Shown one piece after another: positions 3,146 through 62,272 of a DNA stretch of 64,000 nucleotides (position 1 is the stretch's first letter; each line of letters opens with the position of its first letter). A program made the position numbers and the translations under genes. The notes under the pieces were generated by a model, which saw nothing but the letters and a program-made list of their open reading frames with translations, did not search any database and was not told where the DNA came from. Source of the stretch: Escherichia phage DCP548; sequence record PQ671645.1. One strand, given 5' to 3'.

Positions 3146-3149
3146 GAAA

Positions 3150-3170
3150 AAGGGAGACAACGTCTCCCTT
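3150..3170. terminator. Hairpin between convergent genes 54 (+) and the alt-downstream ORF (-)
   Basis: agggagac / gtctccct stem (3151-3158 / 3162-3169); T-run on the minus strand; placed between two convergent stops. Confidence 0.4.
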
Positions 3171-3177
3171 TAGGGGT

Positions 3178-3471
3178 TTATTTACGGAATGAAAGGAATG
3201 CTGGTGCTCTGAATGGAGTATCATCTTTAGAGTATTTAACTAATACGACCATTGGTACCTCTGTTTCTAAATGACCTGTCACTACACCGACAAAAATTTG
3301 ATCAGTGTGCTCAGGGTCACGAAAGTTTTTAAGAGGTTCCATAGCAATATGGAATGCACCTGGGAATACTCGATTCAATTCATCAATCACAGCTTCGTTA
3401 AAAACATCATCCGCTGGGATAGCATCTTCAACTACTAGTTCTTGACCATTAAAGCGAAGCATAGATTTCAT
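3178..3471 (-). CDS. Hypothetical protein downstream of alt
   Basis: Track ORF 3178..3543 trimmed to the internal Met (MKSMLRF) that has a GAGGA Shine-Dalgarno and avoids overlap with alt. Confidence 0.4.
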   Translation of the reverse strand: MKSMLRFNGQELVVEDAIPADDVFNEAVIDELNRVFPGAFHIAMEPLKNFRDPEHTDQIFVGVVTGHLETEVPMVVLVKYSKDDTPFRAPAFLSFRK

Positions 3472-3529
3472 AACGTTTTCCTCATGTTGTTGATGGGATG
3501 ATAGTATCACACATCCATGTGTTTGTAAA

Positions 3530-5617
3530 CTATCCTTGGACAAATTTAAACGGAACTGATTCTAAATCCATTAAAGATGCTAACAATTTCAAACCTTTAG
3601 GTGCACTAGTTTTTTCTACAAATGAGGCAAAAGATACCGGCTCATCTGATTCGATTTCACCTGTCATAGCAACTACCTCGCCTGTTTCCATGAGAACATC
3701 ACCATCATAAATGACAGCTTCATCTAACTGGTCTGAGGACATGACTTCAGCTTGAATAAATTTAAGGTTGGATTCTAAACCTGCACCAGTATCAGATGAC
3801 GCATCTGTAATTTTATTTATCTGCAAGAGAATGCCTCTAGGCAAAATAATTTCTTGCTCATTAGGGTGATTACTCAACTGTCCTGGATAAATCACGTTAA
3901 CTTTATGGGCGCCATCAATAGCCCATCCAACGTTAACACGGATTTGTTCTGGTGCATGCATAGCTGTTCTTACTTGACTAGGAGAAATAGTAACACCTTC
4001 GTCATTATTATCAATGTTAAGCTCTTTGCGAACTTCTTCAGGAGCAAGTCCAAGGGCAACGTTCTCTTTAAACCCGCCGAAAATAATAGGAGCTAGTGAA
4101 GTGGAAACATAGTTTCTGAAGTAGAATACCTTATTTTTAACCATTGCTTCGTAAATAGGCATTCTGATAGACTGAGCTCTATATAACGTTAGTCCTTCAG
4201 GTAAACGGTCTCCATTTAAAAACGCCGAATCAAGACCATCAATAGCGCGTTTAACTTCATCTTCATCTGCAACATCGTAAAAATCTGGTTTATAACGACC
4301 TAACAACATATTATTGATATCGATATACGCAGAAGAGGCATATTCACGAATAGCTCGTTTTTCAGCAACAGAGTATTGTTTAGGGTCCCGATTCATTGTT
4401 ATATTAAAGGTGCCTCTAGCCGATTCCCGTGCATAAGTATACATCACATTAGACAAGAACGCTGATTTACGTTGTTTCCAAGTTCTTTCAGATACTTCAG
4501 CTAAAACGTCGTCGGGCAGTTGGAAATTATCACGTCTAAAATCTTCAAACCATTCGTCTTTAATAGAGTCTGCAATTTCATTTGCAGCTTCAACAAAAGC
4601 AGCTAATGCTTTAACAGATGTTGTTTTTTCAGTTTTAATTTTCTTAGCAAACTTTTCTAAAGTTGGCTTAATAACACTACCATAAGAAACTTCATCGGCA
4701 AATTTAAAGGATTCATCAATACGATTATAAATCTTATTTTCGATATCAGCAACTAAAGTGCCTTTTGCTGTGGACGATGCTTGGGCTAGTACGATTTCAT
4801 ATGCTTCAGGAAGTAATTCGGCTGTAGCCGGGCCACTAACTTCTTTAGCAGAATTTTCGTATTTCTGGAATAACTCACCTTCTTGACGGTCAGCTTCTAA
4901 AGATTGACTTGCTGCAATAGCACGACGAGAAATTTTGGTGCGAGCAATAACAGGTTTATCTTTACGTTTTTCTTCTACCGCGGCAATAGAACCGGCGATA
5001 GCCGTTTCTTTGGTGACCTTTTCACCGGTCTTTTTACTCACATAAACTTCGCCAACATCAGAATCTACTTTCGTGTACAACTCTGTGTTAATGTTAGGGA
5101 TGCCTTTAATATCCTCAATGTTGGCATTTTTACGAACCATCATCACATAGGTGTGTTTACCTGTGAATTGATACATTGCCGACAATACTTTAAAACGACC
5201 ACCGGTTTTAGTAGAAACTAAACGAGCAAGAAGAGTTTGAAGCTGCTGTCCACGTCCTTTCAATTTCTTGGTAGGGAACCGGAACAGAACTGCATCCATA
5301 CGAAGAGCTTTAACCTGTTCATATACTGTATTGAAAATGGTGTTGATTGCATCAATAGGAGCAGGACCAAGGCCATTTTTCAATTCAGCGAGATTACCCT
5401 TTTCAGACAGACTCATAATAACAACATGAGCGTATTTGTCGCCAAGTTTAACTTGTTTTACAGCATCGCCTTCAGAAAGGTAAGAGAATAAGCGAACTAC
5501 GATGTTTGTATCGATATCACCAATTTTCCAGACTTGTGGAACTTTAGCTTTAGGGTTCAAATTGACGACAGGAAGACTGCCTTCAGATTCAAACACTTCA
5601 TTTAATTGTTCAGACAT
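3530..5617 (-). CDS. alt: Alt ADP-ribosyltransferase (virion-packaged; modifies host RNA polymerase)
   Basis: 695 aa (T4 Alt about 682 aa); directly downstream of DNA ligase as in T4; C-terminal region carries YRAQ and Ser-rich ART-like motifs; TATAAAT-like late promoter upstream. Confidence 0.8.
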   Translation of the reverse strand: MSEQLNEVFESEGSLPVVNLNPKAKVPQVWKIGDIDTNIVVRLFSYLSEGDAVKQVKLGDKYAHVVIMSLSEKGNLAELKNGLGPAPIDAINTIFNTVYEQVKALRMDAVLFRFPTKKLKGRGQQLQTLLARLVSTKTGGRFKVLSAMYQFTGKHTYVMMVRKNANIEDIKGIPNINTELYTKVDSDVGEVYVSKKTGEKVTKETAIAGSIAAVEEKRKDKPVIARTKISRRAIAASQSLEADRQEGELFQKYENSAKEVSGPATAELLPEAYEIVLAQASSTAKGTLVADIENKIYNRIDESFKFADEVSYGSVIKPTLEKFAKKIKTEKTTSVKALAAFVEAANEIADSIKDEWFEDFRRDNFQLPDDVLAEVSERTWKQRKSAFLSNVMYTYARESARGTFNITMNRDPKQYSVAEKRAIREYASSAYIDINNMLLGRYKPDFYDVADEDEVKRAIDGLDSAFLNGDRLPEGLTLYRAQSIRMPIYEAMVKNKVFYFRNYVSTSLAPIIFGGFKENVALGLAPEEVRKELNIDNNDEGVTISPSQVRTAMHAPEQIRVNVGWAIDGAHKVNVIYPGQLSNHPNEQEIILPRGILLQINKITDASSDTGAGLESNLKFIQAEVMSSDQLDEAVIYDGDVLMETGEVVAMTGEIESDEPVSFASFVEKTSAPKGLKLLASLMDLESVPFKFVQG

Positions 5618-9306: not shown

Positions 9307-9360
9307 ATTTTTCCACTTACTAAAGAAATCATTATACTCTAATCCGTCCTTGGATGTAAA

Positions 9361-9975
9361 CTACTTAATGAAATTAATTTCTACAGGATGAACAACAGGT
9401 TGAGCAGTGATATATTGAGTAATTGCTTTCATGACTAGAGCTTCAGAACCAGGATTTTTCTCAACGAATTCACGTGCTTGGTTATGAGCTTCAAGTTCAC
9501 TTAGTAAACCACTTCGTTGACATCCACGGTCTTGAGTACCCTGTTCAGATAAAAAGGCGACGATGTATTTTTCATCGTCATACGGTTTAGGCAGTTGAGC
9601 AAATGTTCCTTTACTTCCGAAAGGAGAGTTATGTCGCCACATAACGCCGTGAGGAGTTTCAACCTTCGTATATTCATGCGGGCCATTTTTCTTAGTTTCT
9701 TGTTGTGGAACTTCATGGACCTTAGGGTTAGGACATTCAATAAAATGCTCATCTAAATCAGTCGAGAATATTAAAGTAAAACAATTACTGAATTTACCAA
9801 CACCAGCCTGATAAATTTTACCTTCAGAAGTTCTAATTTCACAAACTGAGCCAGCATCAGTAACTTCTAAAACTTCAAAAGGCTCGATAAGGTCATATGA
9901 GAACATGTTTTTAAGGCGTGGAGTAATATCCCCATTTTTAAAATTCATTTTATAAAAAGTATTAACTTTAAACAT
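9361..9975 (-). CDS. Hypothetical protein
   Basis: Track ORF 9361..10005 trimmed to Met MFKVNTF (start codon 9973-9975), which has a GAGGAAA Shine-Dalgarno; the extension would run through the hairpin at 9988-10003. Confidence 0.5.
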   Translation of the reverse strand: MFKVNTFYKMNFKNGDITPRLKNMFSYDLIEPFEVLEVTDAGSVCEIRTSEGKIYQAGVGKFSNCFTLIFSTDLDEHFIECPNPKVHEVPQQETKKNGPHEYTKVETPHGVMWRHNSPFGSKGTFAQLPKPYDDEKYIVAFLSEQGTQDRGCQRSGLLSELEAHNQAREFVEKNPGSEALVMKAITQYITAQPVVHPVEINFIK

Positions 9976-10376: not shown

Positions 10377-10417
10377 TTTATTCTCCAGATGTTTAAGTTG
10401 TTTGTTGGTACAGGTCT

Positions 10418-10446
10418 ATAATAACATAACCTGTACCAAAGTAAAC
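10418..10446 (-). promoter_or_regulatory. T4-type early promoter upstream of ORF 10011..10376
   Basis: Minus-strand -35 GTTTAC (plus 10441-10446), 17-bp spacer, -10 TATTAT; flanked by an 8-bp inverted repeat ggtacagg/cctgtacc. Confidence 0.5.
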
Positions 10447-10450
10447 ATTT

Positions 10451-10822
10451 TTATTTGATTTTTGTCCACTTAGCTGAATCAATAACACCTTTTGCTTTAA
10501 TCTTCTCGATTAATGACTCTGCACGATTTCTAGCATTTTCGTACCATACAACATCTTCAGAGTAACCAGTCTCTTCATCTTCGTAAGTTTTAGAACGAAT
10601 ACAACCATAAACTGTAGAATTCAGACGGTAAATTTCACCAGTGAAAAAGTTTTCGATTTCGATATGATAACAAAAATCGTCTGAAGGGCCATCAGGAGTT
10701 GTACAATAAACCACATCACCTTGAACTGAACGAACCATCCATTGTAACTCGTTAACAACTTGAGATTTATATCCATCATGGTCACGGCATTTAATTGTAG
10801 CATTTAAATTGATAGTGTTCAT
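10451..10822 (-). CDS. Hypothetical protein
   Basis: 123-aa ORF with the same 5' architecture as 10011..10376 (duplicated promoter/SD region). Confidence 0.5.
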   Translation of the reverse strand: MNTINLNATIKCRDHDGYKSQVVNELQWMVRSVQGDVVYCTTPDGPSDDFCYHIEIENFFTGEIYRLNSTVYGCIRSKTYEDEETGYSEDVVWYENARNRAESLIEKIKAKGVIDSAKWTKIK

Positions 10823-10863
10823 TTTATTCTCCGGTTGTTTTATTGATTAGGTGGTACAAGTCT

Positions 10864-10892
10864 ATAGTAACACATCCTACAGGAGAGTAAAC
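10864..10892 (-). promoter_or_regulatory. T4-type early promoter upstream of ORF 10451..10822
   Basis: -35 GTTTAC (plus 10887-10892), 17-bp spacer, -10 TACTAT; surrounding about 70 bp resemble the 10377-10450 cassette. Confidence 0.45.
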
Positions 10893-12471: not shown

Positions 12472-13042
12472 AAAAGTTTCGGATTTGTTCCCAATTCAGA
12501 GAACGAAGATTATTACGAGAGTACTGAATTACTTCAATACCTGCTTGTTTTAGAATGTCTGCCCAATTTTCAGGAGATCGATCGTATAATTCTGCGTATA
12601 CAACCTTTTTAATACCTGACTGCGTAATAGCTTTAGTGCAATCAGGACATGGAGAAAGCGTCGTATATAACGTAGCACCTTCAATAGAATTACCTTTACG
12701 TGCTGCAAACAAAATTGCATTCAATTCTGCATGGATTTCATTATTAGCAGACCATGCACTATGAGCGGCCCGATGTTCTTTAGCTAAAACAAAATTATCT
12801 GCCCGTCCAAATGCTGTAGTGCCTTCTTTATGTCCAGCAACGATGACCGGGCTTGGTTTATTCTTCAACCAACCATTTTCGGATGCATGTTCACAACAGT
12901 TAACGCCACCTGCTGGTGAGCCATTATATCCAGTAGAGATAATGCGTCCATCTTTTTCAATGACGGCGCCAACTTTCCATGAACAACATTTTGATTCTTG
13001 AGAAATCAAATAAGCAATTTGAAGATATGTGCTAGCTTTCAT
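12461..13042 (-). CDS. cd: dCMP deaminase
   Basis: 193 aa (T4 Cd is 193 aa); zinc-binding deaminase motifs HAELNAI and PCPDC; T4 map position. Confidence 0.9.
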   Translation of the reverse strand: MKASTYLQIAYLISQESKCCSWKVGAVIEKDGRIISTGYNGSPAGGVNCCEHASENGWLKNKPSPVIVAGHKEGTTAFGRADNFVLAKEHRAAHSAWSANNEIHAELNAILFAARKGNSIEGATLYTTLSPCPDCTKAITQSGIKKVVYAELYDRSPENWADILKQAGIEVIQYSRNNLRSLNWEQIRNFCGE

Positions 13043-14034
13043 TATTGAACCTTATTAATATAAGTTAACAGCTCTTTAGTTTGTTCCCAACTGATGCACG
13101 CATCGGTAACGGAAACGCCATAGGACATATTATCAGAAATTTTTTGATTTCCTTCATGTAGGAATGATTCTATCATAATTCCTTTGACCAAATCATTAGC
13201 TGCTAAATTTTTACCAATACCAATTTGATTGATATAATACCCATCAGCGTTTGCATGGCTACAGTCAACCATTACATAATGATTCAGACCTACTGCACTT
13301 GCTTTGTTAGAAGCTTCTTGAATATCAGAAGAATGATAGTTCGGGCCGTTAGTCCCGCCACGCAATACGATATGCGTATTCTGATTACCTTCAGCTTCAA
13401 CAATGCCTACAGTACCATCGACGTCCATACCCATATACCGATGAGGCCAGGCGGCACTATACATCGCGTCTGTAGCTACTTTAATAGAACCATTTGTTGC
13501 GTTCTTGAAGCCTACGCACATCGGTAGACCTGAAGCAATTTCACGATGTGTCTGACTTTCAGTCGTACGGGCGCCAATAGCAACCCATGAGAAAATACCA
13601 GAAAGATACTTAATCGTGAATGGGTCTAATACTTCAGTTGCTAATGGAAGTCCCATACGTAGAAGTTTACGACACAATGTTCGTGCAACTATAAGACCGT
13701 GGTTCATATCAAAACTTCCGTCAAGATATGGATCATTTACAAGACCTTTCCAACCTACGGTAGTTCGAGGCTTTTCAAAATAAACGCGCATCACTAACAG
13801 AACATTAGGAAGACGAGTTTGAAGTTCAGCCAGACGTTTGCCGTATTCAACAGCAGCAATAGGGTCATGAATTGAACAAGGACCTACAACAATAAGTTTG
13901 CGTGGGTCTTCACCATTCATAATCGAATTAACTTGTTCGCGATGAGAAGCCACTTGTGATGCGTAAGCTTCCGACAAAGGAATAATCTCAGCCAGTTCTT
14001 TTGGAGAAATAAGTTTTCTGACGACAGGTAACAT
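13042..14034 (-). CDS. 3-deoxy-D-arabino-heptulosonate-7-phosphate (DAHP) synthase, class I-alpha (AroG/AroF/AroH-like)
   Basis: 330 aa; collinear match to E. coli AroG including VVGPCSIHDP, VMRVYFEKPRTTVGWKGL, IGARTTESQTHRE, GFKN, IVLRGG, CSHAN, ESFLHEGNQ and TDACI blocks; stop shares one nt with the cd ATG (TAATG). Confidence 0.9.
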   Translation of the reverse strand: MLPVVRKLISPKELAEIIPLSEAYASQVASHREQVNSIMNGEDPRKLIVVGPCSIHDPIAAVEYGKRLAELQTRLPNVLLVMRVYFEKPRTTVGWKGLVNDPYLDGSFDMNHGLIVARTLCRKLLRMGLPLATEVLDPFTIKYLSGIFSWVAIGARTTESQTHREIASGLPMCVGFKNATNGSIKVATDAMYSAAWPHRYMGMDVDGTVGIVEAEGNQNTHIVLRGGTNGPNYHSSDIQEASNKASAVGLNHYVMVDCSHANADGYYINQIGIGKNLAANDLVKGIMIESFLHEGNQKISDNMSYGVSVTDACISWEQTKELLTYINKVQ

Positions 14035-14391: not shown

Positions 14392-14419
14392 TTCTATTTC
14401 CTCATTTGTTGGTAGAGTT

Positions 14420-14449
14420 ATAGTAACACAACTCCACCATGTTGTAAAC
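14420..14449 (-). promoter_or_regulatory. T4-type early promoter upstream of ORF 14155..14391
   Basis: -35 GTTTAC (plus 14444-14449), 18-bp spacer, -10 TACTAT. Confidence 0.45.
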
Positions 14450-16517: not shown

Positions 16518-16545
16518 TTAGATTTCCTCAATTATCCATAGGAGC

Positions 16546-16575
16546 ATTATACTCTGCTCCTGAGAGTTTGTAAAC
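16546..16575 (-). promoter_or_regulatory. T4-type early promoter in a stem-loop cassette upstream of ORF 16218..16517
   Basis: -35 GTTTAC (plus 16570-16575), 18-bp spacer, -10 TATAAT; inverted repeat ggagca/tgctcc around the -10; near-identical copy at 44697-44732. Confidence 0.5.
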
Positions 16576-16799
16576 TATTTTACTAAAGATTCAATATACT
16601 CGTGAAGAGCTTTAGTCGCTACTGCCCACTTATTCTGATATTCATTTTTCAGATTAGCACGAGACTGAACTAACAATCGGTCATTAGTCGGAGGCAAAGA
16701 TTCTAATCGTTGAATCTGGCGCCCATAAATCATAGCCGCCATTTCAGATTCATAGATAAGCCCTTTAATGTATTCATGTTGTTCTTTAGTCATTGGCAT
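16575..16799 (-). CDS. Hypothetical small protein
   Basis: 74-aa ORF downstream of the spanin pair. Confidence 0.4.
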   Translation of the reverse strand: MPMTKEQHEYIKGLIYESEMAAMIYGRQIQRLESLPPTNDRLLVQSRANLKNEYQNKWAVATKALHEYIESLVK

Positions 16800-17080
16800 T
16801 TTTCCTCTTTTAAACCACTACGATAATAACATATCATAGTCTTCTGGTCATGTACATATCTTTTTACATCGTTTAACCAGATACGAAATTCTTGAGAGTC
16901 TTCAAATGGCATTCCAACCCACGGATTACCATCAATAACCTTTACTTGCCATTTCTGGTTATATTCAACAATAGATTCAGGCCACGGCGGATGTAAAGTT
17001 TCTTTAGGGCTTAAGGGCACATCCTGGGCACATCCGGCCAAAATGCCAATAGATAATACAACTGCGGTTAATTTAATCAT
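16790..17080 (-). CDS. o-spanin (outer-membrane lipoprotein subunit, Rz1-like)
   Basis: N-terminus MIKLTAVVLSIGILAGC has a signal peptide and lipobox (LAGC); start overlaps the upstream i-spanin stop; matches the T4 pseT.2 position. Confidence 0.65.
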   Translation of the reverse strand: MIKLTAVVLSIGILAGCAQDVPLSPKETLHPPWPESIVEYNQKWQVKVIDGNPWVGMPFEDSQEFRIWLNDVKRYVHDQKTMICYYRSGLKEEKCQ

Positions 17081-17433: not shown

Positions 17434-17921
17434 GTTTTAATAATCTCAATGATTTCATCTCGGGATAATCCATTGATAAGAACGGTTTTCGGACCATCGC
17501 ACTGGATTTTGTACGATTCAAACAATACACACAACTCTTCTGCTGTATGATACGGACTTGAGATTCCGAGACGGTTGAATTTGTCGGTAAGAGGGTCGCA
17601 AATAATGTAGAATTTTATACCTGCAATATGTACGTTTGGTTGACTAATATTAATGAACACATTAGCGTCATATTTAGTCAAATTGTTTTGAAGAAATTCT
17701 ACCATAGCATTAACTGCTTCTGGCATCGCTTCGCGTTTCTCTTCGGTGTAACGTGTTGAATATTCCTTTTGCTTTAACTTCTTTTTAGCATTTTTCGCTA
17801 GAGTAACACGTAGGTCAGTAAGATAACCAACTGGGCGTCCTTTCTTAAAGACTCGGATTCCATCTGTAGAATCACCAAATGCTGCCACAACCATATCGTT
17901 AGTAATCAATTGCATATTCAT
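17421..17921 (-). CDS. alc: Alc (host transcription elongation inhibitor), positional call
   Basis: Track ORF 17421..17984 trimmed to MNMQLI (start codon 17919-17921, GAGGAG SD), giving 167 aa, the size of T4 Alc; the extension would cover the promoter at 17952-17981; lies directly downstream of rnlA. Confidence 0.55.
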   Translation of the reverse strand: MNMQLITNDMVVAAFGDSTDGIRVFKKGRPVGYLTDLRVTLAKNAKKKLKQKEYSTRYTEEKREAMPEAVNAMVEFLQNNLTKYDANVFINISQPNVHIAGIKFYIICDPLTDKFNRLGISSPYHTAEELCVLFESYKIQCDGPKTVLINGLSRDEIIEIIKTCLK

Positions 17922-17951
17922 AATTTTCTCCTCGTGTTGTTGATAAAAACC

Positions 17952-17981
17952 ATAGTAACACCTTCCTTGGTGTTTGTAAAC
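17952..17981 (-). promoter_or_regulatory. T4-type early promoter upstream of alc
   Basis: -35 GTTTAC (plus 17976-17981), 18-bp spacer, -10 TACTAT, in the rnlA-alc gap. Confidence 0.45.
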
Positions 17982-17983
17982 CA

Positions 17984-19117
<1,134 letters not shown>

Positions 19118-19134
19118 TCAGTTAGTTTTTTTAA

Positions 19135-19164
19135 ATTGTACCACAATCCTTGTGGCATGTAAAC
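19135..19164 (-). promoter_or_regulatory. T4-type early promoter upstream of rnlA
   Basis: -35 GTTTAC (plus 19159-19164), 18-bp spacer, -10 TACAAT. Confidence 0.45.
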
Positions 19165-19577: not shown

Positions 19578-19596
19578 AAAGTGGGACCGAAGTCCC
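19578..19596 (-). terminator. Hairpin between nrdB and denA
   Basis: gggac-cgaa-gtccc (19583-19596) with a U-rich tail on the minus transcript; may be attenuating rather than fully terminating. Confidence 0.4.
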
Positions 19597-23392: not shown

Positions 23393-25078
<1,686 letters not shown>

Positions 25079-25080
25079 AA

Positions 25081-25329
25081 TTATTTCCTCAGATTTTTCT
25101 TAACAACTTTCCAATCAGCTTTAAACTGATCGACGTCAGAATGATAAATCCAGAATCCTGCACTTTCACCATCTTCGTAGAGTGGACATCCATCACATTC
25201 TTCGTTCCAACCCATTTCTCGTAAAGCTTCTTCAGCTTGTTCAAGGAGTTCAGCGTCTTTACCGACGATGTTGAAGTACCATTTACCTCTAACTTCCGAA
25301 TCTTTGATGCTCTGGCGTTGCAATCTCAT
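25081..25329 (-). CDS. Hypothetical small protein (frd.x position)
   Basis: 82-aa ORF with early promoter at 25365-25394 upstream. Confidence 0.45.
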   Translation of the reverse strand: MRLQRQSIKDSEVRGKWYFNIVGKDAELLEQAEEALREMGWNEECDGCPLYEDGESAGFWIYHSDVDQFKADWKVVKKNLRK

Positions 25330-25364
25330 TTTATTCTCCGCTTCACTTTTGATTTGATAGGGCT

Positions 25365-25394
25365 ACTATAACATAACCCTATCTGATTGTACAC
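25365..25394 (-). promoter_or_regulatory. T4-type early promoter in a stem-loop cassette upstream of ORF 25081..25329
   Basis: -35 GTGTAC variant (plus 25389-25394), 18-bp spacer, -10 TATAGT; inverted repeat gataggg/ccctatc (25356-25383) brackets the -10. Confidence 0.45.
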
Positions 25395-25808: not shown

Positions 25809-26060
25809 TCATTTGTTGATGTGTTGTAATAAAGATTCTGCAAACGTCTCATATGATTCCAGGTGTTCTTCTTTAATGCGAACTGCATGATTATCACCCG
25901 AAGAATAGAACATCTGTACGATAAGAGCTTCGTAATCAGACGAAATACATGCTACGTTTTCCGACTTCAGGCATTCATTGTATGTCGCAACTGGGTCAGT
26001 GAAAGCTGCAACGTTTTTGCTACCGCAGTAATCCATACTTCTTTGAATAATAAAAATCAT
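25809..26060 (-). CDS. Hypothetical small protein
   Basis: 83-aa ORF immediately downstream of the gene 32 terminator and the promoter at 26091-26119. Confidence 0.4.
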   Translation of the reverse strand: MIFIIQRSMDYCGSKNVAAFTDPVATYNECLKSENVACISSDYEALIVQMFYSSGDNHAVRIKEEHLESYETFAESLLQHINK

Positions 26061-26090
26061 TTTATTTTCCTCTCATTTGTCGATAAGTCT

Positions 26091-26119
26091 ATAGTATCAT
26101 GTTTAAAGGAAAAGTAAAC
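26091..26119 (-). promoter_or_regulatory. T4-type early promoter upstream of ORF 25809..26060
   Basis: -35 GTTTAC (plus 26114-26119), 17-bp spacer, -10 TACTAT; just downstream of the gene 32 terminator. Confidence 0.45.
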
Positions 26120-29352: not shown

Positions 29353-29384
29353 ATGAACCTCTTGTTCAGTTAGTCAACTTGTCT

Positions 29385-29414
29385 ATAGTAACACACTCAT
29401 TTGAAAGCGTAAAC
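29385..29414 (-). promoter_or_regulatory. T4-type early promoter for rnh
   Basis: -35 GTTTAC (plus 29409-29414), 18-bp spacer, -10 TACTAT; its -35 is 3 bp from the plus-strand late promoter of gene 34. Confidence 0.45.
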
Positions 29415-39844: not shown

Positions 39845-39890
39845 AACGTTTTATTCATTCCACTTAGTTGGTATGGATATAGTACCATTA

Positions 39891-40106
39891 TCAGTGTTGA
39901 TTGTAAATGGCTTTTTCTACGCTTTTAACGTAATTGGTATAGTCTTCCTGTTCATACGAGTGTAAGGCCAAGAACTGAACTAATAGTTCATTATAGACTA
40001 AAGCCTCACGCTCACGTTCGGCCTCTACTACGTTCTGAAGATTATGACTCATATCGTTCCTTATAACTATCAATATAGTCCTGTATGTCGAAGAATGATA
40101 TTTCAT
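39891..40106 (-). CDS. Hypothetical small protein
   Basis: 71-aa ORF; overlaps the following ORF, so one of the two starts is probably wrong. Confidence 0.3.
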   Translation of the reverse strand: MKYHSSTYRTILIVIRNDMSHNLQNVVEAEREREALVYNELLVQFLALHSYEQEDYTNYVKSVEKAIYNQH

Positions 40107-42353: not shown

Positions 42354-42392
42354 TTTATTTCTCCAATTTGGTTGTTTTGTTTTGATAGGTCT

Positions 42393-42421
42393 ATAATATC
42401 ATGTTTGAAGCACATGTAAAC
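42393..42421 (-). promoter_or_regulatory. T4-type early promoter for motA
   Basis: -35 GTTTAC (plus 42416-42421), 17-bp spacer, -10 TATTAT; preceded on the transcript by the terminator hairpin at 42451-42466. Confidence 0.5.
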
Positions 42422-43872: not shown

Positions 43873-44013
43873 TCACCATATTAATGAACGAATAACCATT
43901 ATAACATCTGAAATGAAAAGCACTACTTGGATTAGCCCAAACATCACACCGTAGTACAGAACCGTAAGCAAAAACAAGAGCCCGAAGGCTCCTGCTAAGA
44001 TTTTCTTAATCAT
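43873..44013 (-). CDS. Small hydrophobic membrane protein (46 aa), not in the ORF track
   Basis: Hand translation MIKKILAGAFGLLFLLTVLYYGVMFGLIQVVLFISDVIMVIRSLIW; its ATG overlaps the stop of the next small ORF (ATGA). Confidence 0.35.
   Translation of the reverse strand: MIKKILAGAFGLLFLLTVLYYGVMFGLIQVVLFISDVIMVIRSLIW
43898..43922 (-). promoter_or_regulatory. Candidate MotA-dependent middle promoter for gene 52
   Basis: Minus strand reads TGCTTTTCA (MotA-box-like), 12 nt, then TATAAT, ending about 30 nt upstream of the gene 52 ATG. Confidence 0.35.
43974..43991 (-). terminator. CGAA-loop hairpin inside the small membrane ORF 43873..44013
   Basis: gagcc-cgaa-ggctc (43978-43991) with a U-rich tail on the minus transcript; embedded in coding sequence, so function is uncertain. 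Confidence 0.25.
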
Positions 44014-44658: not shown

Positions 44659-44702
44659 GCTAATTTCCTCAATTGATTAATGTTTTTGTAATCCATGAGA
44701 GC

Positions 44703-44732
44703 ATTATACTCTGCTCTCAAGAGTTTGTACAA
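44703..44732 (-). promoter_or_regulatory. T4-type early promoter in a stem-loop cassette upstream of ndd
   Basis: -35 TTGTAC variant (plus 44727-44732), 18-bp spacer, -10 TATAAT; inverted repeat gagagca/tgctctc; near-identical to 16541-16575. Confidence 0.45.
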
Positions 44733-44734
44733 TT

Positions 44735-44935
44735 TTATTCGGCTATATCAGAACGTTCAAAAAGCTCTTCAATAGTTAAACATTCAGTGTCATCTTCAAT
44801 AAAGAATCGAGTCCAACACGTTGGGGCGATACAGTTATGAGTTTGTCCGGCGATAGAAGCTACACGAATAAGCTGCTGACCATTATTCAGAACAAATTTT
44901 TCACCAATTTCAACATCTTTAAAAAGCTTAGCCAT
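44735..44935 (-). CDS. Hypothetical small protein
   Basis: 66-aa ORF with early promoter cassette 44964-44993 upstream. Confidence 0.4.
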   Translation of the reverse strand: MAKLFKDVEIGEKFVLNNGQQLIRVASIAGQTHNCIAPTCWTRFFIEDDTECLTIEELFERSDIAE

Positions 44936-44963
44936 TTTGTGTTCCTCATGTTTCAGTAGGACT

Positions 44964-44993
44964 ACTATACCATAATCCTACCGTGATGTAAAC
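44964..44993 (-). promoter_or_regulatory. T4-type early promoter in a stem-loop cassette upstream of ORF 44735..44935
   Basis: -35 GTTTAC (plus 44988-44993), 18-bp spacer, -10 TATAGT; inverted repeat gtagga/tcctac brackets the -10. Confidence 0.45.
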
Positions 44994-45449: not shown

Positions 45450-45475
45450 GATGTTATCCTCTTTTAGATAGGACT

Positions 45476-45505
45476 ACTATATCATAGTCCTACTTAGTTG
45501 TAAAC
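45476..45505 (-). promoter_or_regulatory. T4-type early promoter in a stem-loop cassette upstream of ORF 45186..45449
   Basis: -35 GTTTAC (plus 45500-45505), 18-bp spacer, -10 TATAGT; inverted repeat taggact/agtccta (45469-45492). Confidence 0.45.
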
Positions 45506-46075: not shown

Positions 46076-46349
46076 AGATACCTCTGATGTGTAGTTCGCC
46101 AAAATAAATGCGGTCACCTTCTTCAAGATATTCAGCATCTACAGGTGGAATTTCATTAACAACTTCGTCGCATTCTAACCAGCCATAGTGTGCATCACCT
46201 GGGTGTTTTACCAATTTAGCACAATAAACCGATTTACACTTATGATGACCACGAAGATTAGCAATTTTGGATTCTGATACGTCAAATGGATGAATCATAA
46301 TTACCCCTAAAGAAAAAGGGGACCGAAGTCCCCAATTATTATTCTGCAA
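46011..46349 (-). CDS. Hypothetical protein (between rIIB and denB)
   Basis: 112-aa ORF; overlaps the proposed denB start by about 65 nt, so one boundary is probably wrong. Confidence 0.3.
   Translation of the reverse strand: MQNNNWGLRSPFSLGVIMIHPFDVSESKIANLRGHHKCKSVYCAKLVKHPGDAHYGWLECDEVVNEIPPVDAEYLEEGDRIYFGELHIRGIYGKDELGIVETEESSDIYPVE
46313..46333 (-). terminator. Intrinsic terminator after rIIB
   Basis: ggggac-cgaa-gtcccc (46318-46333) followed on the minus transcript by UUUUUCUUU; 6 nt after the rIIB stop. Confidence 0.55.
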
Positions 46350-49814: not shown

Positions 49815-50915
49815 TTACGCTGTGAAGATTTTATCCCACATCGCAACAACTGCATCTCGGTTATACTTCTTCCATACTGCTTCAGCACGTTTAACTCGAG
49901 CTTCGTATGTGTCAGTGAATTCTAATACAGCTTTTGTGTAAAGCGCAACTACTTCTTTCTTAGGAGTAGAGGAATCAATTTCTACACGCACAGTATCTGG
50001 GTCGTATTCGAATGTCGCATGAGGATAATCCTTAAAAACTAACTGGATTACAGGGACACCTTTAGAGATGGCTTCAATAGAACTATTCTCTACCGTACCT
50101 GTGTCAGGACACGTATTAATAAGTGCTTTAGCTGTTTTAAGACGTTCCATGATTTCACTGTGTGGAGCATCAATAATAACAGGATATTTAGCTGGTGGCG
50201 CCCATTTGCTTGGGCAGTATCCTGCACCATTTTCGCCTAGTGCTTTAATCGCTTCAAGAGCAACATCAGTACGACGCATTTTAGTGTCATAACGTTGTGC
50301 ACTAATAATCAGATCCGTCGCCGGAAGAACTTCAGGTTTCTCATTCAAACAAATAACCGGATAATCTTCGGCTTCAAACAACGGATTTGCTCGCCAATAA
50401 TCGTAATCAATTTTGTCAGTCAGACCTGAAGTCATATAACAATATTTGCGTTCAAATTCACGGAAGGCTTTAGTAGGAGCATAACTCTTACCACCATTCT
50501 TATGAATTTGAATAGTCTGGTCCCAAATTTGAACAATGCCACGAGATACCGGTTCAAATGGTGTTGCCATAAAATTCTTATGAACTTTAGAGAGACCTGC
50601 GTCTTTAATTGCCTGAACGGTTAGTTTAGTCGGTTCCATAGTAACAACAAAATCGTATTCATGGATGCCGGCTAGTTCAACAATCTTACGAGCCATAGTA
50701 TAACTCATACCTAGACTGAATTTAGTCAGATGACCAACAGGATGGTGTGTAACTTTCCAGTCACCAAACGTGTCGTTATCAAAGCCGATATAATCAATAT
50801 CAGCACCGATGGACACAAGATATTTCAACACGTTCAAATGAACCGCTTCAAGACCACCTTGTACACGTTCTGGGTTAAATGGGACTGCGCGAGATGGGAT
50901 AAACATAACTTTCAT
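49815..50915 (-). CDS. Putative GT-B fold glycosyltransferase (family 4-like)
   Basis: 366 aa; N-terminus MKVMFIPS...GGLEAV typical of the GT-B N-domain; C-domain has TGTVENSSIEAISKGVPVI resembling the GT4 E-x7-E / ...EAMA.G.PVI motif region; lies where T4 has gene 60 and mobA. Confidence 0.45.
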   Translation of the reverse strand: MKVMFIPSRAVPFNPERVQGGLEAVHLNVLKYLVSIGADIDYIGFDNDTFGDWKVTHHPVGHLTKFSLGMSYTMARKIVELAGIHEYDFVVTMEPTKLTVQAIKDAGLSKVHKNFMATPFEPVSRGIVQIWDQTIQIHKNGGKSYAPTKAFREFERKYCYMTSGLTDKIDYDYWRANPLFEAEDYPVICLNEKPEVLPATDLIISAQRYDTKMRRTDVALEAIKALGENGAGYCPSKWAPPAKYPVIIDAPHSEIMERLKTAKALINTCPDTGTVENSSIEAISKGVPVIQLVFKDYPHATFEYDPDTVRVEIDSSTPKKEVVALYTKAVLEFTDTYEARVKRAEAVWKKYNRDAVVAMWDKIFTA

Positions 50916-50930
50916 AATTAAGCCTTATTA

Positions 50931-50959
50931 AAATTAAAATGAAGCTCCCGAAGGAGCTT
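50931..50959 (-). terminator. Terminator-like hairpin after gene 39
   Basis: aagctcc-cgaa-ggagctt (50942-50959) overlapping the gene 39 stop, followed on the minus transcript by a U-rich tract. Confidence 0.45.
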
Positions 50960-52775
50960 AGGACATCCATTCTTTACGAAGTTCTGAATCATCACCCATC
51001 AACATTTCAAAGAGTTCTTTCCAATTTTCAGGAAGTTTAACTACGTCGTACACAGGGTTCTGAATCATTTCACGATATTCTGACTTTTCAAGGGAGCCTA
51101 ATCCCTTGATGTATCGAATACTATGCTTAGGCAGTGTATCTTTAACTTCTTCATACTCAGCTACAGTATAAAACCATTTTTGAGTTTTGCCAATTTGTGC
51201 AATAATTACAGGCGTTTTAACAAAGCGAATACGTCCTTGTTCAAACAATTCAGGCCAATTACTAAAGAAAGCAAGCAAAGCCGGATAGATACTTCCAAGA
51301 CCGTCATGATCGGCATCGGTCATAATTGCAATATTACGATAGTTCGTATTCTCTGCCTTTTCACCAAGAATAAGACCTGTGATAGCACAGATATCGAAGA
51401 GCTCTTTGTTCTTCATCATATCGGCATATGACATACCCCAGCTATTCATCACCTTACCACGTAATGGGAATCCACCGTGTAGTTCACGGTCACGAACATC
51501 AATGAGATAACCAATTGCCGAATCACCTTCTGTTAAAAACAATGTCGTATCTGCATCTTTACCACATTGGTTAGCTTTAATATGCTTATGAACCTTAGCT
51601 TTAGTTGCCTTTTTAGCTGCTTTAGTTTCTGCAGCCTTTTCTGCTGCCAATTTACGAGCTAATGCTGCTTCAACAATAGGCATAATCAAGGCTTCGTTTT
51701 TAAGAAGTGCCTGAGCAATTTTCTTAGCATCTAATTGGATATGATTACGAATATCGCCATACGTTGACGTTAAACGTTCTTTAGTCTGAGAATCAAAACG
51801 CATGTTGCTCATGTCTCTAATAAACATCAACATTGTGAGACATTCTTTAACACGAGCTTTAGTGACTTCAATACCCTTATATTTCTTTTTAATACCCGGC
51901 AAAAGATGTTCGCAGATATCATCCATTACACATTCAACATGATGACCACCATTTTTAGTATGGATGTTATTCACATAAGTTAAATGACGGAAGCCGTCCG
52001 GCGATGTTGTGAATGCTATAGAGACTTTATCATTTTCTTGAATGATGCTATCTTCGCCAAATTGTTTAGCAAATCGTTTAAAATTACCATCAACCTTTTT
52101 ACCATTAAATGTGAACTTGATATCAGGATAAACGACTGCCAATGTTTGAAGTCGGTCTAAAGTAATATCTAAATAAATTTGAGATAAATTATGCTCTTCA
52201 AATGAAGAGAAATCAGGAGTGAAGATTACTTTAGTGCCTTTACCTTTAGATTTCTTAGAAGACCATGATTTGTTTTCCATTCCGTTTGAACAGTTAACAG
52301 TGATTTCATTTTCGCCATCTGACGTGATGCCTGTAAACAACGTAGAGAAGATATTAGTTAAACTACTCCCGACGCCGTTCATACCACCAGTCTTGCGTTC
52401 AGAGTCATCACCAAAGTTACCACCGGCCTTTGGAATAGTCCAGGCCGCTACAGGCCCAGGAATTTGTTCACCTGTTTGGTCGGTAACTAAACCTTGAGGA
52501 ATACCACGCCCGTTATCTTCCACTGAAACTTGATTATTTTTAATTTGCACATCAATTTTATTTGCAAACTTAAATGATGTACGAATAGCTTCATCAACCG
52601 AGTTGTCAATAATCTCATCGATTAATTTAACCAGACCAGGAACATATTCAACTTGTTGATATTTACCAAACAAAAAACGCTCGTGGGCTTCTTTAGCCGA
52701 AGAACCAATATACATACCACTACGTTTCTTAATATGTTCTACATCTGACAATACCTTAATTTCATTTTTAATCAT
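50958..52775 (-). CDS. 39: DNA topoisomerase II large subunit (GyrB-like), uninterrupted gp39+gp60 form
   Basis: 605 aa; N-terminal GHKL ATPase; C-terminal 130 aa (IAIMTDADHDGLGSIYP...KLPENWKELFEMLMGD) match T4 gp60, so the protein is contiguous with no bypass element. Confidence 0.95.
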   Translation of the reverse strand: MIKNEIKVLSDVEHIKKRSGMYIGSSAKEAHERFLFGKYQQVEYVPGLVKLIDEIIDNSVDEAIRTSFKFANKIDVQIKNNQVSVEDNGRGIPQGLVTDQTGEQIPGPVAAWTIPKAGGNFGDDSERKTGGMNGVGSSLTNIFSTLFTGITSDGENEITVNCSNGMENKSWSSKKSKGKGTKVIFTPDFSSFEEHNLSQIYLDITLDRLQTLAVVYPDIKFTFNGKKVDGNFKRFAKQFGEDSIIQENDKVSIAFTTSPDGFRHLTYVNNIHTKNGGHHVECVMDDICEHLLPGIKKKYKGIEVTKARVKECLTMLMFIRDMSNMRFDSQTKERLTSTYGDIRNHIQLDAKKIAQALLKNEALIMPIVEAALARKLAAEKAAETKAAKKATKAKVHKHIKANQCGKDADTTLFLTEGDSAIGYLIDVRDRELHGGFPLRGKVMNSWGMSYADMMKNKELFDICAITGLILGEKAENTNYRNIAIMTDADHDGLGSIYPALLAFFSNWPELFEQGRIRFVKTPVIIAQIGKTQKWFYTVAEYEEVKDTLPKHSIRYIKGLGSLEKSEYREMIQNPVYDVVKLPENWKELFEMLMGDDSELRKEWMS

Positions 52776-52821: not shown

Positions 52822-52838
52822 AAAAAGGGCCGAAGCCC
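52822..52838 (-). terminator. Intrinsic terminator-like hairpin after ORF 52839..53264
   Basis: gggc-cgaa-gccc with aaaaa on the plus side (U5 on the minus transcript). Confidence 0.45.
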
Positions 52839-53264
52839 TTATTTAAATTTAATTTTCTGAAGTGCATCAATTGCAGCCAAACGCCCTTGTTCACTTTTAA
52901 CTGTAATGACCACATCGCCTGATACGATCACCGAACCATCAACAAATTCTATAGAGCCTTTTTTGAAATCGACAGCTGTATCTGGTTCCGGAACTTCTTC
53001 AAAGAATTTAAATTCTGCACCATAAAGCAGAATATCACCTTGCATACTATGAATAGTTCGGCCATAATCGCCTACGGCTTCTACAGCAATAACCGAAACG
53101 CCGTAACCAATCATCTCTTCCACAATAAAATCTTTGGACAATAAAGTAGTATGCAGATTAGTATTAAGACGCTTACCAGTCGTATTAAGAATTCTCAAGA
53201 AATTATCTTCCTGTCCTTTGATAATACGATATTTCTTACCAACTTCAAAACCTTTAAAAGCCAT
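52839..53264 (-). CDS. Hypothetical protein
   Basis: 141-aa ORF followed by a CGAA-loop terminator hairpin at 52827-52838. Confidence 0.45.
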   Translation of the reverse strand: MAFKGFEVGKKYRIIKGQEDNFLRILNTTGKRLNTNLHTTLLSKDFIVEEMIGYGVSVIAVEAVGDYGRTIHSMQGDILLYGAEFKFFEEVPEPDTAVDFKKGSIEFVDGSVIVSGDVVITVKSEQGRLAAIDALQKIKFK

Positions 53265-54086: not shown

Positions 54087-54114
54087 AATATTCTCCTCTT
54101 GTTTTGATAGGTCT

Positions 54115-54144
54115 ATAGTATCATAGACCATAGTTGTTGTACAT
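54115..54144 (-). promoter_or_regulatory. T4-type early promoter upstream of ORF 53859..54086
   Basis: -35 ATGTAC variant (plus 54139-54144), 18-bp spacer, -10 TACTAT; near-palindromic ggtctatagtatcatagacc. Confidence 0.4.
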
Positions 54145-54668: not shown

Positions 54669-54694
54669 ATTATTCTCCTCTGGTTGATATGGAT

Positions 54695-54723
54695 ATAATA
54701 TCAAAACCAGAGGAGAAGTAAAC
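54695..54723 (-). promoter_or_regulatory. T4-type early promoter upstream of ORF 54144..54668
   Basis: -35 GTTTAC (plus 54718-54723), 17-bp spacer, -10 TATTAT. Confidence 0.45.
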
Positions 54724-55156: not shown

Positions 55157-55654
55157 TTAAGCTTTAAGAGGAGACACATAGCGAGTGATTTCAGATTCTT
55201 TAACAACTCGGAAGTCACCTAAGAATACGATATTGTATAACTTTTCACCATCTTCAACCCATTGGTCACTAATGAAGCCACACATGATATCGGTTGTGCT
55301 TGGATAACCGTATTCGTCGATGTAATCGAATTCTTTATCGGTTATAAATTCAACGCCTTTACACAAGGCCCATTTGAACTGTACATTAGGCTCAACGATA
55401 TCGCTTGAAGCAAAGTGTGCAGGTGCAACTTCTTCGCTTGAAGCAAATTGGACTCGTATATGTTTTTCCAGGAATTTAGGACTTACGTAAGCATACTGGG
55501 CATCTTGTCCGCCAAAACTGGGGATGATTCGAACTTTAACTTCTTTAACACGTCCCATGCCGTTAGTACGAAGCCCTGCTACTTCAACCAGACGACCTGC
55601 AGCTTTAGAACGAGAAGCAGGAGATACACGAAGGATTTCACCAATAGTAATCAT
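55157..55654 (-). CDS. Hypothetical protein, member B of the tandem paralogue family
   Basis: Track ORF trimmed to Met MITIGEIL (start codon 55652-55654); C-terminal block GFISDQWVEDGEKLYNIVFLGDFRVVKE; promoter 55685-55714 upstream. Confidence 0.5.
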   Translation of the reverse strand: MITIGEILRVSPASRSKAAGRLVEVAGLRTNGMGRVKEVKVRIIPSFGGQDAQYAYVSPKFLEKHIRVQFASSEEVAPAHFASSDIVEPNVQFKWALCKGVEFITDKEFDYIDEYGYPSTTDIMCGFISDQWVEDGEKLYNIVFLGDFRVVKESEITRYVSPLKA

Positions 55655-55684
55655 ATTTTTTCTCTCTTTGTTTAAGTTGAATTC

Positions 55685-55714
55685 ATTATACTCCATCCAT
55701 CCTTGGATGTACAA
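55685..55714 (-). promoter_or_regulatory. T4-type early promoter upstream of paralogue B
   Basis: -35 TTGTAC variant (plus 55709-55714), 18-bp spacer, -10 TATAAT; shares the attatactcc...ccttgg motif with cassettes at 9331 and 56243. Confidence 0.4.
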
Positions 55715-55716
55715 CA

Positions 55717-56211: not shown

Positions 56212-56242
56212 AATGTTTTTCCTGTTTGGTTAAGATAGAAAG

Positions 56243-56272
56243 ATTATACTCCAACCGTCCTTGGTTGTAAAC
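56243..56272 (-). promoter_or_regulatory. T4-type early promoter upstream of paralogue C
   Basis: -35 GTTTAC (plus 56267-56272), 18-bp spacer, -10 TATAAT; same cassette family as 9331-9361 and 55685-55714. Confidence 0.45.
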
Positions 56273-59335: not shown

Positions 59336-59385
59336 AATATTTTCCTCTGTCTTACGGACGTTAAGGTCATTTAGCTGATAAGCTT

Positions 59386-59414
59386 ATAATATCATGCCCT
59401 CAGGTAGTGTACAC
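59386..59414 (-). promoter_or_regulatory. T4-type early promoter upstream of the srd-position ORF
   Basis: -35 GTGTAC variant (plus 59409-59414), 17-bp spacer, -10 TATTAT. Confidence 0.4.
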
Positions 59415-60097: not shown

Positions 60098-60127
60098 TTA
60101 GGTTTCTCCTCACGTTTCGATAAAGTA

Positions 60128-60157
60128 ATCATAACACCGTCTGTGGTGGTTGTAAAC
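60128..60157 (-). promoter_or_regulatory. T4-type early promoter upstream of modA
   Basis: -35 GTTTAC (plus 60152-60157), 18-bp spacer, -10 TATGAT. Confidence 0.4.
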
Positions 60158-60738: not shown

Positions 60739-60765
60739 GATAGACCTCCATTTAAAGATAAGCCT

Positions 60766-60794
60766 ATCATAACACGAGAGGAGGGAATGTAAAC
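60766..60794 (-). promoter_or_regulatory. T4-type early promoter upstream of modB
   Basis: -35 GTTTAC (plus 60789-60794), 17-bp spacer, -10 TATGAT. Confidence 0.4.
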
Positions 60795-62205: not shown

Positions 62206-62272
62206 ATTATTCTCCTCTTGAGTAAGTAAGAATATCTTAACACAGTTTTTAGTGGTTGTAAACTGTAGAAAC

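Follow-up and report, generated by a model that had tools for sequence, protein, structure and literature searches.

Early-promoter cassettes with embedded stem-loops, probably of the PeSL kind, in a T4-like coliphage of the RB69/JS09/F2 group

Promoter early stem-loop elements (PeSLs) are known from RB49/phi1 (Arbiol et al. 2010, PMC2839356) and from T4/PST and KVP40/nt-1 (Comeau et al. 2014, PMC4122927), and are expected in 'probably all' T4-like phages (Comeau et al., PMC4122927). A PeSL is defined by a stop codon in an A-rich tract, a sigma-70-type early promoter, a stem-loop located between -35 and -10 or overlapping -10, and a Shine-Dalgarno sequence (SD) with a start codon (PMC2839356). 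The searchable literature contained no PeSL catalogue for the RB69-like group. Here we analyzed a 64,000-nucleotide stretch of Escherichia phage DCP548 (PQ671645.1; the whole stretch is called the window), in which an initial annotation had noted promoter/stem-loop cassettes resembling PeSLs. The resemblance extended to every anatomical element of the published definition, and it is highly probable, judged from sequence, that the 25 cassettes found are T4-type early promoters of the PeSL kind. As with the described PeSLs, many copies occur in the early regions of one genome, cassettes lie at indel junctions of close relatives, and these junctions match the PeSL recombination model; the T4/PST stem consensus AGNA-loop-TCNT also fits TAGGA...TCCTA in cassettes 44992 and 45504. 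The window differs from the published cases in that its phage comes from an RB69/JS09/F2-like group outside the catalogues of both papers, and in that its stems are AT-rich and lack a U-tract, leaving a terminator role without sequence support here. Whereas the 2014 figure legend puts PST stems 'just upstream of the promoter' (PMC4122927), the stems of the window, and those of T4 when re-scanned, bracket -10 and the start. A possible further difference is that cassettes were not enriched beside open reading frames (ORFs) absent from T4 (2/20 cassette-proximal genes vs 14/66 others, by synteny with the part of T4 compared).

A 5-kb probe of the window showed 99.2% identity with Escherichia phage F2 and 98-99% with HX01, JS09, and phi25-307, and by this similarity the source is a T4-like coliphage of the RB69/JS09/F2 group, and for many of its members the isolation hosts were pathogenic E. 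coli and Shigella strains. The F2 annotation gave the gene order baseplate 48/54, alt, 30, rIII, 31, cd, pseT, alc, rnlA, denA, nrdAB, td, frd, 32, 59, 33, dsbA, and rnh, followed by a plus-strand block of tail-fibre genes 34-38 and, beyond it, by asiA, motA, 52, ndd, denB, rIIB, rIIA, 39, motB, dexA, dda, srd, and modA/B. Outside the tail-fibre block, the window consists of leftward early and middle genes, and all cassettes were within early regions.

The claim that minus-strand genes are preceded by cassettes of GTTTAC and a -10 element was borne out by a motif search of the window, with the plus strand and shuffled sequences as controls. A two-block weight matrix trained on the window's own sites detected 25 minus-strand cassettes at a score of >=12 (25-26 sites at that cut-off), compared with none on the plus strand (top score 10.7) and 0.7 in dinucleotide shuffles. 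A loose promoter regular expression gave 46 matches on the minus strand versus 20±3.8 in shuffles, and 22 versus 23, that is, background, on the plus strand; the motif is thus real and strand-specific by both measures. Each cassette fills the 55-75 nt gap between the stop codon of one early gene and the start of the next, in the order A-rich tract, GTTTAC(A) -35, 16-18 bp spacer, TAnnAT -10, predicted start (7 nt past -10), SD, and ATG; the spacer frequently ends in TGn, and positions -3 to -1 are C-rich. The stop codon of the upstream ORF ends 0-6 nt ahead of TTTAC in 15 of the 25 cassettes, the SD lies 14-38 nt past -10 in 22 of the 25, and, where an ORF was called downstream (22 cassettes), the ATG lies 24-44 nt past -10 in 20 and at 15 and 50 nt in the other two. 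The cassettes therefore contain, by sequence, the sigma-70-type early promoter of a PeSL with its -35/-10 hexamers and 16-18 bp spacer, the AT-rich tract upstream of -35 with the upstream gene's stop codon, and, at the 3' end, the SD and start codon that belong to the following gene.

The published T4/RB69 early-promoter consensus consists of GTTTAC at -36 to -31, an A-tract, and a start 7 nt after -10 (PMC1524935; PMC2988021), and 57 early promoters were predicted in RB69 (Nolan et al. 2006, PMC1524935). The window consensus is identical to it, and shares with the T4 Pe 'uber' UP/-35/TGn/-10 promoters (Hinton 2010, PMC2988021; PMC1524935) GTTTAC, the A-tract near -42, TGn, TAnnAT, and the C-rich -3 to -1. 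The cassettes are also, like T4 early promoters, oriented with early genes, upstream of the orthologues of asiA, motA, ndd, srd, rnh, and others; however, published descriptions cover the promoter only, and the hairpin within it and a role in recombination come on top of these. The T4 GenBank and RefSeq records held no promoter features on which mapped T4 starts could be overlaid, and a literature search for T4 maps of transcription starts or 3' ends and for dyad symmetry in early promoters returned nothing usable. The cassette map amounts to 25 likely early transcription starts.

The initial annotation had cited six inverted repeats bracketing -10, and all six were found on the minus strand, each bracketing -10: GGAGCA/TGCTCC at 16541-16560, GAGAGCA/TGCTCTC at 44697-44718, GATAGGG/CCCTATC at 25356-25383, GTAGGA/TCCTAC at ~44956-44981, TAGGACT/AGTCCTA at 45469-45492, and GGTACAGG/CCTGTACC at 10409-10438. 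As single RNA hairpins they folded at -11.9 to -17.9 kcal/mol, with z-scores from -2.2 to -6.5 relative to dinucleotide shuffles. Since the consensus itself holds a 5-bp repeat, TGATA-N9-TATCA, letters were also shuffled within the aligned columns of 23 cassettes, which retains the promoter consensus. The mean minimum free energy (MFE) of the -17..+32 region was -9.93 kcal/mol, compared with -5.64±0.47 in these column shuffles (0/500), and a perfect stem of >=6 bp was present in 11 cassettes versus 3.4±1.7 (0/500). Random 49-nt windows of the same strand had a mean of -6.3, and 2.8% of them reached -13, versus 7/25 cassettes. In the syntenic 63 kb of T4 the same matrix detected 18 cassettes, with a folding energy of -13.2 versus -6.0±0.55 (0/300). 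Inverted repeats thus exceed the frequency in shuffled sequence, and a stable stem-loop within or over the promoter, the remaining element of a PeSL, was present in the cassettes as a set, four of the 25 having no notable stem. That the repeats are a by-product, arising by chance in AT-rich spacers, from palindromy of the consensus, or through shared descent of duplicated cassettes, is very improbable: several cassettes are indeed paralogues and some variants break stems, but the shuffles that keep the consensus repeat fold far weaker in both phages, individual hairpins stand out singly, and the stems of paralogues differ in sequence yet stay paired through compensatory changes.

Whole cassettes recur, as had been noted, although their description as nearly verbatim was overstated, at 75-81% identity. 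Between 16531-16580 and 44685-44740, 41/53 positions were identical, and in the trio that begins at 9321, 55681, and 56236, 30-35 of 40-43 positions; the repeat of this trio (ATCC(A)/(T)GGAT or AACC/GGTT) lies between -35 and -10 and does not bracket -10. The cassettes are given below, each labeled by the position next to its 5'-most -35 coordinate (e.g. 16574 for 16518..16575).

3529: 3467..3530, minus strand; upstream of an alt.-3-like ORF, abutting the alt stop codon; -35 GTTTACA 3524-3530, -10 TACTAT 3501-3506, spacer hairpin ACACA/TGTGT.
9360: 9307..9361, minus strand; -35 9355-9361, spacer of 18, -10 TATAAT 9331-9336, spacer stem ATCC/GGAT; boundary of a segment replaced in NHEP36.
10445: 10377..10446, minus strand; 12-bp stem TTGGTACAGGTT/GACCTGTACCAA (10428-10439 / 10405-10416) around -10 TATTAT 10418-10423; boundary of an allele replacement.
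10891: 10823..10892, minus strand; -10 TACTAT 10864-10869; spacer TCTCC pairs long-range with SD GGAGA, whose probability of being unpaired rises from 0.01 on read-through RNA to 0.85 on the own transcript; other boundary of the 10450-10822 replacement.
14448: 14392..14449, minus strand; upstream of a cd.2-like ORF; -10 TACTAT enclosed by a 13-bp stem that includes G·U (14427-14439 / 14410-14422); 5-6 changes in relatives, with ~-16 kcal/mol kept.
16574: 16518..16575, minus strand; -35 GTTTACA 16569-16575, its G from the stop codon TAG of a pseT.1-like ORF; -10 TATAAT 16546-16551; stem AGGAGCA/TGCTCCT 16555-16561 / 16540-16546; predicted start ~16539; minus strand 16575-16535 reads TAGTTTACAAACTCTCAGGAGCAGAGTATAATGCTCCTATGG, as first described; heads a two-ORF block without T4 counterpart, inserted between pseT.1 and pseT relative to T4.
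16856: 16800..16857, minus strand; weak (score 14.5), within an Rz1-like ORF; -10 TATGTT; stem ACTATGATA/TATCGTAGT.
17980: 17920..17981, minus strand; alc region, abutting the rnlA-like stop codon; spacer hairpin ACACC/GGTGT; in a second helix, -9..0 pairs with the AUG region.
19163: 19109..19164, minus strand; upstream of rnlA, abutting the denA stop codon; spacer hairpin TGCCACAA/TTGTGGTA.
25393: 25330..25394, minus strand; -10 TATAGT 25365-25370; 11-bp stem GATAGGGTTAT/GTAGCCCTATC 25373-25383 / 25356-25366, kept or improved in relatives with 3-6 changes.
26118: 26061..26119, minus strand; downstream of gene 32; spacer TTTCCTTT pairs with SD AGAGGAAA (unpaired probability 0.01 on read-through RNA vs 0.72 on the own transcript); its 3' half bounds an ORF indel on one side.
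29413: 29353..29414, minus strand; precedes rnh, in the gap that separates it from the divergent gene 34; promoter without a notable embedded stem.
39907: 39845..39908, minus strand; upstream of asiA; consensus 5-bp repeat TGGTA/TACCA only; adjoins a segment replaced in AV111.
42420: 42354..42421, minus strand; upstream of motA; duplicated around an extra ~72-aa ORF in vB_EQ1 and AV110.
44731: 44659..44732, minus strand; upstream of ndd, family of 16574; stem TGAGAGCA/TGCTCTCA 44712-44719 / 44696-44703; -10 TATAAT 44703-44708.
44992: 44936..44993, minus strand; -10 TATAGT 44964-44969; 12-bp stem CGGTAGGATTAT/GTAGTCCTACTG.
45504: 45450..45505, minus strand; -10 TATAGT 45476-45481; 10-bp stem GTAGGACTAT/GTAGTCCTAT.
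54143: 54087..54144, minus strand; -10 TACTAT 54115-54120; stem GGTCTATG/TATAGACC 54122-54129 / 54110-54117.
54722: 54669..54723, minus strand; -10 and the predicted start are enclosed by a 12-13-bp stem TTCTCCTCTGGTT/AACCAGAGGAGAA (54705-54716 / 54674-54685) that has the SD as its 3' arm (SD unpaired with a probability of 0.00 on read-through RNA, 0.82 on the own transcript).
55713: 55653..55714, minus strand; spacer hairpin ATCCA-agga-TGGAT; downstream partner in the NHEP36 deletion.
56271: 56212..56272, minus strand; downstream of dexA; spacer hairpin AACC/GGTT; upstream partner in the NHEP36 deletion; loop flipped in AV111.
59413: 59336..59414, minus strand; upstream of srd; consensus repeat TGATA/TATCA only.
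60156: 60098..60157, minus strand; precedes a modA/B-like gene; CACC/GGTG forms a short stem in the spacer.
60793: 60739..60794, minus strand; 17-bp helix, G·U included, between the -10 region (60760-60776) and the SD end plus AUG (60731-60747).
62262: 62206..62263, minus strand; SD GAGAATA (unpaired probability 0.23 on read-through RNA vs 0.70 on the own transcript) pairs with TATTCTT, which lies shortly before the predicted start.

By the position of their stems, the cassettes were grouped as follows.

-10 between the arms, the end of the 3' arm at -9..+6 relative to the predicted start: 10445, 14448, 16574, 16856, 25393, 44731, 44992, 45504, 54143.
Both arms within the spacer: 3529, 9360, 17980, 19163, 55713, 56271, 60156.
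5' arm upstream of the start pairs with SD or AUG: 54722 (13 bp), 26118, 10891, 60793, 62262, second helix of 17980.
Consensus repeat only: 29413, 39907, 42420, 59413.

The arms fall in the spacer and at -6..+3, and the loop is the TGn/-10 element. The initial annotation took differing stems with similar loops as a sign of selection for structure; selection for structure was supported, but the likeness of the loops follows from the loop being the TGn/-10 element itself, which is fixed by promoter function. The arms sit where polymerase does not read the sequence and are therefore free to differ between cassettes; the inverted repeat would thus make use of positions left unread in the spacer and in the stretch from -10 to the start.

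Cassettes 16574 and 44731 are members of one family in which flank and loop are fixed (AAACTCT-N6-CAGAGTATAATG). A search of IMG/VR and fetched GenBank loci with this degenerate pattern, arms free, yielded 50 instances in 21 distinct versions, with up to three copies per genome and in at least six different downstream contexts, T4 upstream of motB among them. Across 15 distinct natural variants of the 7-bp stem, 98.1% of cells were paired, compared with 88.3±2.1% in shuffles (0/500) and 35-50% when the register was slid; changes occurred on both sides at four of the seven pairs, and the 14 non-Watson-Crick cells were all G·U, with A·C absent. Another family, with its stem in the spacer, has ACCA...TGGT or TCCA...TGGA across 14 versions. 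Variants in sister phages held hairpin stability better than the same number of randomly placed mutations (z = -2.65 for all 48; z = -3.0 for strong hairpins only). Protein-anchored IMG/VR retrieval with ndd and pnk gave 3 and 7 loci, too few for covariation among orthologues, and Rfam covariance models had no match at the gathering threshold anywhere in the window. The column shuffle, the family covariation, and the natural variants together support selection of the stems for structure. A reading of the palindromes as operators, at which a dimeric phage or host regulator shuts off early promoters, could appeal to their overlap with -10 and to a shut-off mechanism that is not fully understood (PMC3014915), but is hardly likely: the arms are wholly different (GGAGCA, GATAGGG, GGTACAGG, GGTCTAT, ...), loops range from 4 to 31 nt, the register varies, there is no common recognition sequence, and G·U-type variation fits RNA and not a DNA operator.

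The sense RNA folded better than the antisense (-9.70 vs -7.95, p = 0.014; nulls -5.57 and -5.27). This bias and the G·U-only pattern indicate pairing on the sense strand and not a symmetric DNA cruciform, and point to the hairpin pairing most simply as RNA. It is nevertheless conceivable, if unlikely, that the repeats act in DNA, as cruciforms or single-strand hairpins that help to open -10, or as structures attractive to recombination or replication enzymes. The -10 lies within the loop of many hairpins, crossovers were mapped inside the PeSLs of RB49/phi1 (PMC2839356), and two loops are inverted exactly between their arms. In the AV111 orthologue of 56271 (window 56243-56272), AACCA-agga-TGGTT became AACCA-tcct-TGGTT (AACCAaggaTGGTT to AACCAtcctTGGTT), with the arms and both promoter hexamers kept. 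In T4, the record (NC_000866) annotates 133300-133313 as 'inverted complement of previously reported sequence; corrects the early promoter Pe133295'; these positions are the 14-nt loop TTGTGATATTATAG, -10 included, between the 7-bp arms GGTAGAG/CTCTACC (record 133293-133320) of a hairpin that is the T4 counterpart of cassette 14448. Both inversions imply that the arms were paired within one DNA strand at some time, although the T4 flip may be a cloning or sequencing artefact. A cruciform, however, needs both strands, and the 14 sense G·U cells are C·A on the other strand, with none in reverse; moreover, spacer-only hairpins and SD-pairing helices leave -10 unexposed.

Given the consensus spacing, the predicted start falls in or after the 3' arm; a cassette's own transcript would therefore lack the 5' arm, and the hairpin would form on read-through RNA only, the probable site of its action. 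There it is positioned just upstream of the next SD in most cassettes, judging from the distance of 14-32 nt between -10 and SD, which agrees with the initial annotation. Mean SD accessibility was 0.44 on read-through RNA versus 0.64 on own transcripts (p = 0.002). The switch was complete at 10891, 26118, and 54722 (unpaired probability from <=0.01 to >=0.72) and occlusion was partial at 60793 and 62262; 17980 belongs here by helix geometry, its SD accessibility moving only from 0.60 to 0.86. In about six cassettes the partner arm is the SD or AUG, and read-through copies of the downstream gene would be poorly translated while promoter-proximal copies stay open. These cassettes would act like T4 genes e, soc, 49, and I-TevI, in which the SD/AUG is paired on a long transcript and the promoter lies within the helix (Uzan & Miller 2010, PMC3014915). 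The absence of the 5' arm from the short transcript is common to both, with the same geometry at 54722, 26118, 10891, 60793, 62262 (and 17980); on the other hand, the known internal promoter is late or middle with an early long transcript, whereas both are early in the window, and only a minority of window cassettes show SD/AUG pairing. In the remaining majority the hairpin stands 10-30 nt ahead of the SD; there, as a guess, it may act as a pause, block 3' decay, or insulate the upstream message.

The stems have A-rich flanks, e.g. CCCTATC followed by AAATCAAA and CCTGTACC followed by AACAAACA, and lack a U-tract behind them; the cassette hairpins are therefore not classical terminators. The combination of a G+C-rich hairpin and a U-tract that defines intrinsic terminators was absent from them, and a terminator scan listed only one of them on the minus strand (17974). 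The discoverers of PeSLs proposed that the stem-loops terminate or attenuate transcription by polymerase from upstream promoters, and one RB49 stem-loop lowered lacZ expression as strongly as rrnB T1 (PMC2839356); the hairpins of the window also directly follow stop codons and form on read-through RNA only. Such a role is doubtful here, because the stems are AT-rich where those of RB49 have G/C runs, read-through is required for long early operons, and T-tailed UUCG hairpins are found elsewhere. A different, tentative possibility is that the hairpins are non-terminators that mark transcript origin, lowering translation or altering decay of the next cistron on RNA started upstream. This reading is compatible with the sense-strand pairing, the 3' arms that end at the predicted start, the missing U-tract, and the significant SD occlusion in T4 (6/11 vs 1.9 expected in spacer shuffles, p = 0.0003). 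If true, each early gene would be expressed mainly from its own promoter, the e/soc/49 hairpin logic would extend to early genes generally, and PeSL stems would gain an RNA-level function. What the window adds to the described PeSLs looks to be RNA-level pairing, stems without terminator features, and the exclusion of stems from own transcripts. The question of stem function is sharpened accordingly, and with covariation suggestive of sense-strand RNA the terminator and read-through-gating models become directly testable.

Outside the cassettes, G+C-rich, T-tailed hairpins with UUCG (or GUUG) tetraloops were observed at 46318-46333, 52825-52840, 43973-43996, 50942-50959, 19583-19596, and 3149-3171; these are probably the genuine intrinsic terminators, or else RNA stabilisers, and for two of them a terminator reading holds on either strand. 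A plus-strand terminator reading of the cassette hairpins at 45469 and 54110 was rejected, as their T-rich windows are weak and there are no plus-strand genes there.

Comparison of gene content between the window and the sister phages vB_EQ1, AV111, NHEP36, and AV110 (MAFFT global alignment) revealed gene shuffling at cassettes, as had been proposed, including an exact cassette-to-cassette deletion and an extra cassette-flanked gene. NHEP36 lacks 55708-56265, which is exactly the ORF between cassettes 56271 and 55713, and its junction cassette is chimeric, with the upstream half of 56271, the downstream half of 55713, and the crossover just past GTTTACA. vB_EQ1 and AV110 carry an extra ~72-aa ORF at 42344 between two direct copies of cassette 42420, SD and ATGTCTAAA included. 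The chimeric and the duplicated junctions are textbook-clean examples. ORF 25809-26060 is missing from three relatives, an indel with the leader/SD half of 26118 at one boundary and a matching half-cassette at the other; an allele of ORF 10451-10822 with ~65% identity is bounded by cassettes 10445 and 10891, and replaced segments also adjoin 9360, 14448, and 39907. Homing-endonuclease insertions excluded, 7/11 ORF-scale events touch a cassette, 3-4 of them at both ends, and thus cassettes stand at indel and replacement junctions of close relatives as PeSLs do. The 50-75 bp of similarity between cassettes would serve as portable homology, such that recombination between two of them deletes or inserts the intervening gene while each gene retains its own promoter. 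Lambdoid morons, genes with their own promoter and terminator, are alike in that single genes travel with their own expression signals; however, moron flanks are not thought to drive movement, whereas the cassettes are the recombining homology (PMC2839356). Selection for structure, and gene gain and loss at PeSL cassettes, are now seen in a phage group outside the original papers, and the cassette map predicts sites of engineered or natural gene swaps in these phages.

Several observations weigh against the interpretation given above. Promoter activity and start sites are predictions from the consensus only, and cassettes 29413, 39907, 42420, and 59413 have no stem beyond the consensus 5-bp repeat. 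Some variants break stems, with a change from -13.9 to -7.2 in AV110 at 44731 and from -16.1 to -6.6 in AV111 at 44992. Naive counting per pair on window MFE structures gave 20 pair-keeping versus 30 pair-breaking changes; this classification was rejected in favor of the random-mutation comparison as too noisy, real compensatory changes and the loop flip having been mis-scored. Gene conversion between cassettes, copying both arms together, could mimic compensatory change. SD occlusion in the window was not significant against spacer shuffles (5/22 vs 2.8 expected, p = 0.07), and swapping promoter halves between cassettes gave the same mean SD accessibility; the swap is uninformative as a control because all SDs are alike, and spacer shuffles were used instead. 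At least three ORF-scale indels, e.g. 62592-62935, are not cassette-flanked, and breakpoints at random gene junctions would meet a cassette in about a quarter of cases anyway.

Further differences between the relatives were observed in and around the cassettes. At 60156, 14-16 of 49 positions differ in all four relatives, against ~96% identity in the flanking coding sequence, and this cassette appears to have been replaced as a unit; a search for donor cassettes of the divergent versions at 60156 and 39907 identified none. Homing-endonuclease insertions of 650-1100 nt are present in sister phages at ~20103, ~21703, ~23703, ~27841, ~50963, and ~63458, in or beside nrdB, nrdA, td, gene 59/33, gene 39, and the dCTPase gene, and are a second route of gene-content change, independent of cassettes. 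Two adjacent 82-aa ORFs lie on the minus strand at 24830-25078 and 25081-25329; the former is missing in AV111, NHEP36, and AV110 and is not cassette-flanked, and only the latter matches T4 (tblastn). A 106-aa ORF at 62550-62935 (minus strand) is present here and in AV110 and missing from three relatives, with no early cassette involved; its downstream boundary adjoins TATAAATA, the T4 late-promoter consensus, ahead of a soc-like gene.

Among other genes, the early region contains an auxiliary metabolic gene between cd and the cd.x ORFs (13042-14034, minus strand), which encodes a 330-aa phospho-2-dehydro-3-deoxyheptonate aldolase (aroF-like DAHP synthase) and is without counterpart in the syntenic part of T4. 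A 366-aa ORF at 49815-50915, with no T4 match in synteny, adjoins the ORF for the topoisomerase II large subunit (50958-52775, minus strand). The latter is one ORF of 605 aa; in T4, the large subunit is divided between genes 39 and 60, with translational bypass.

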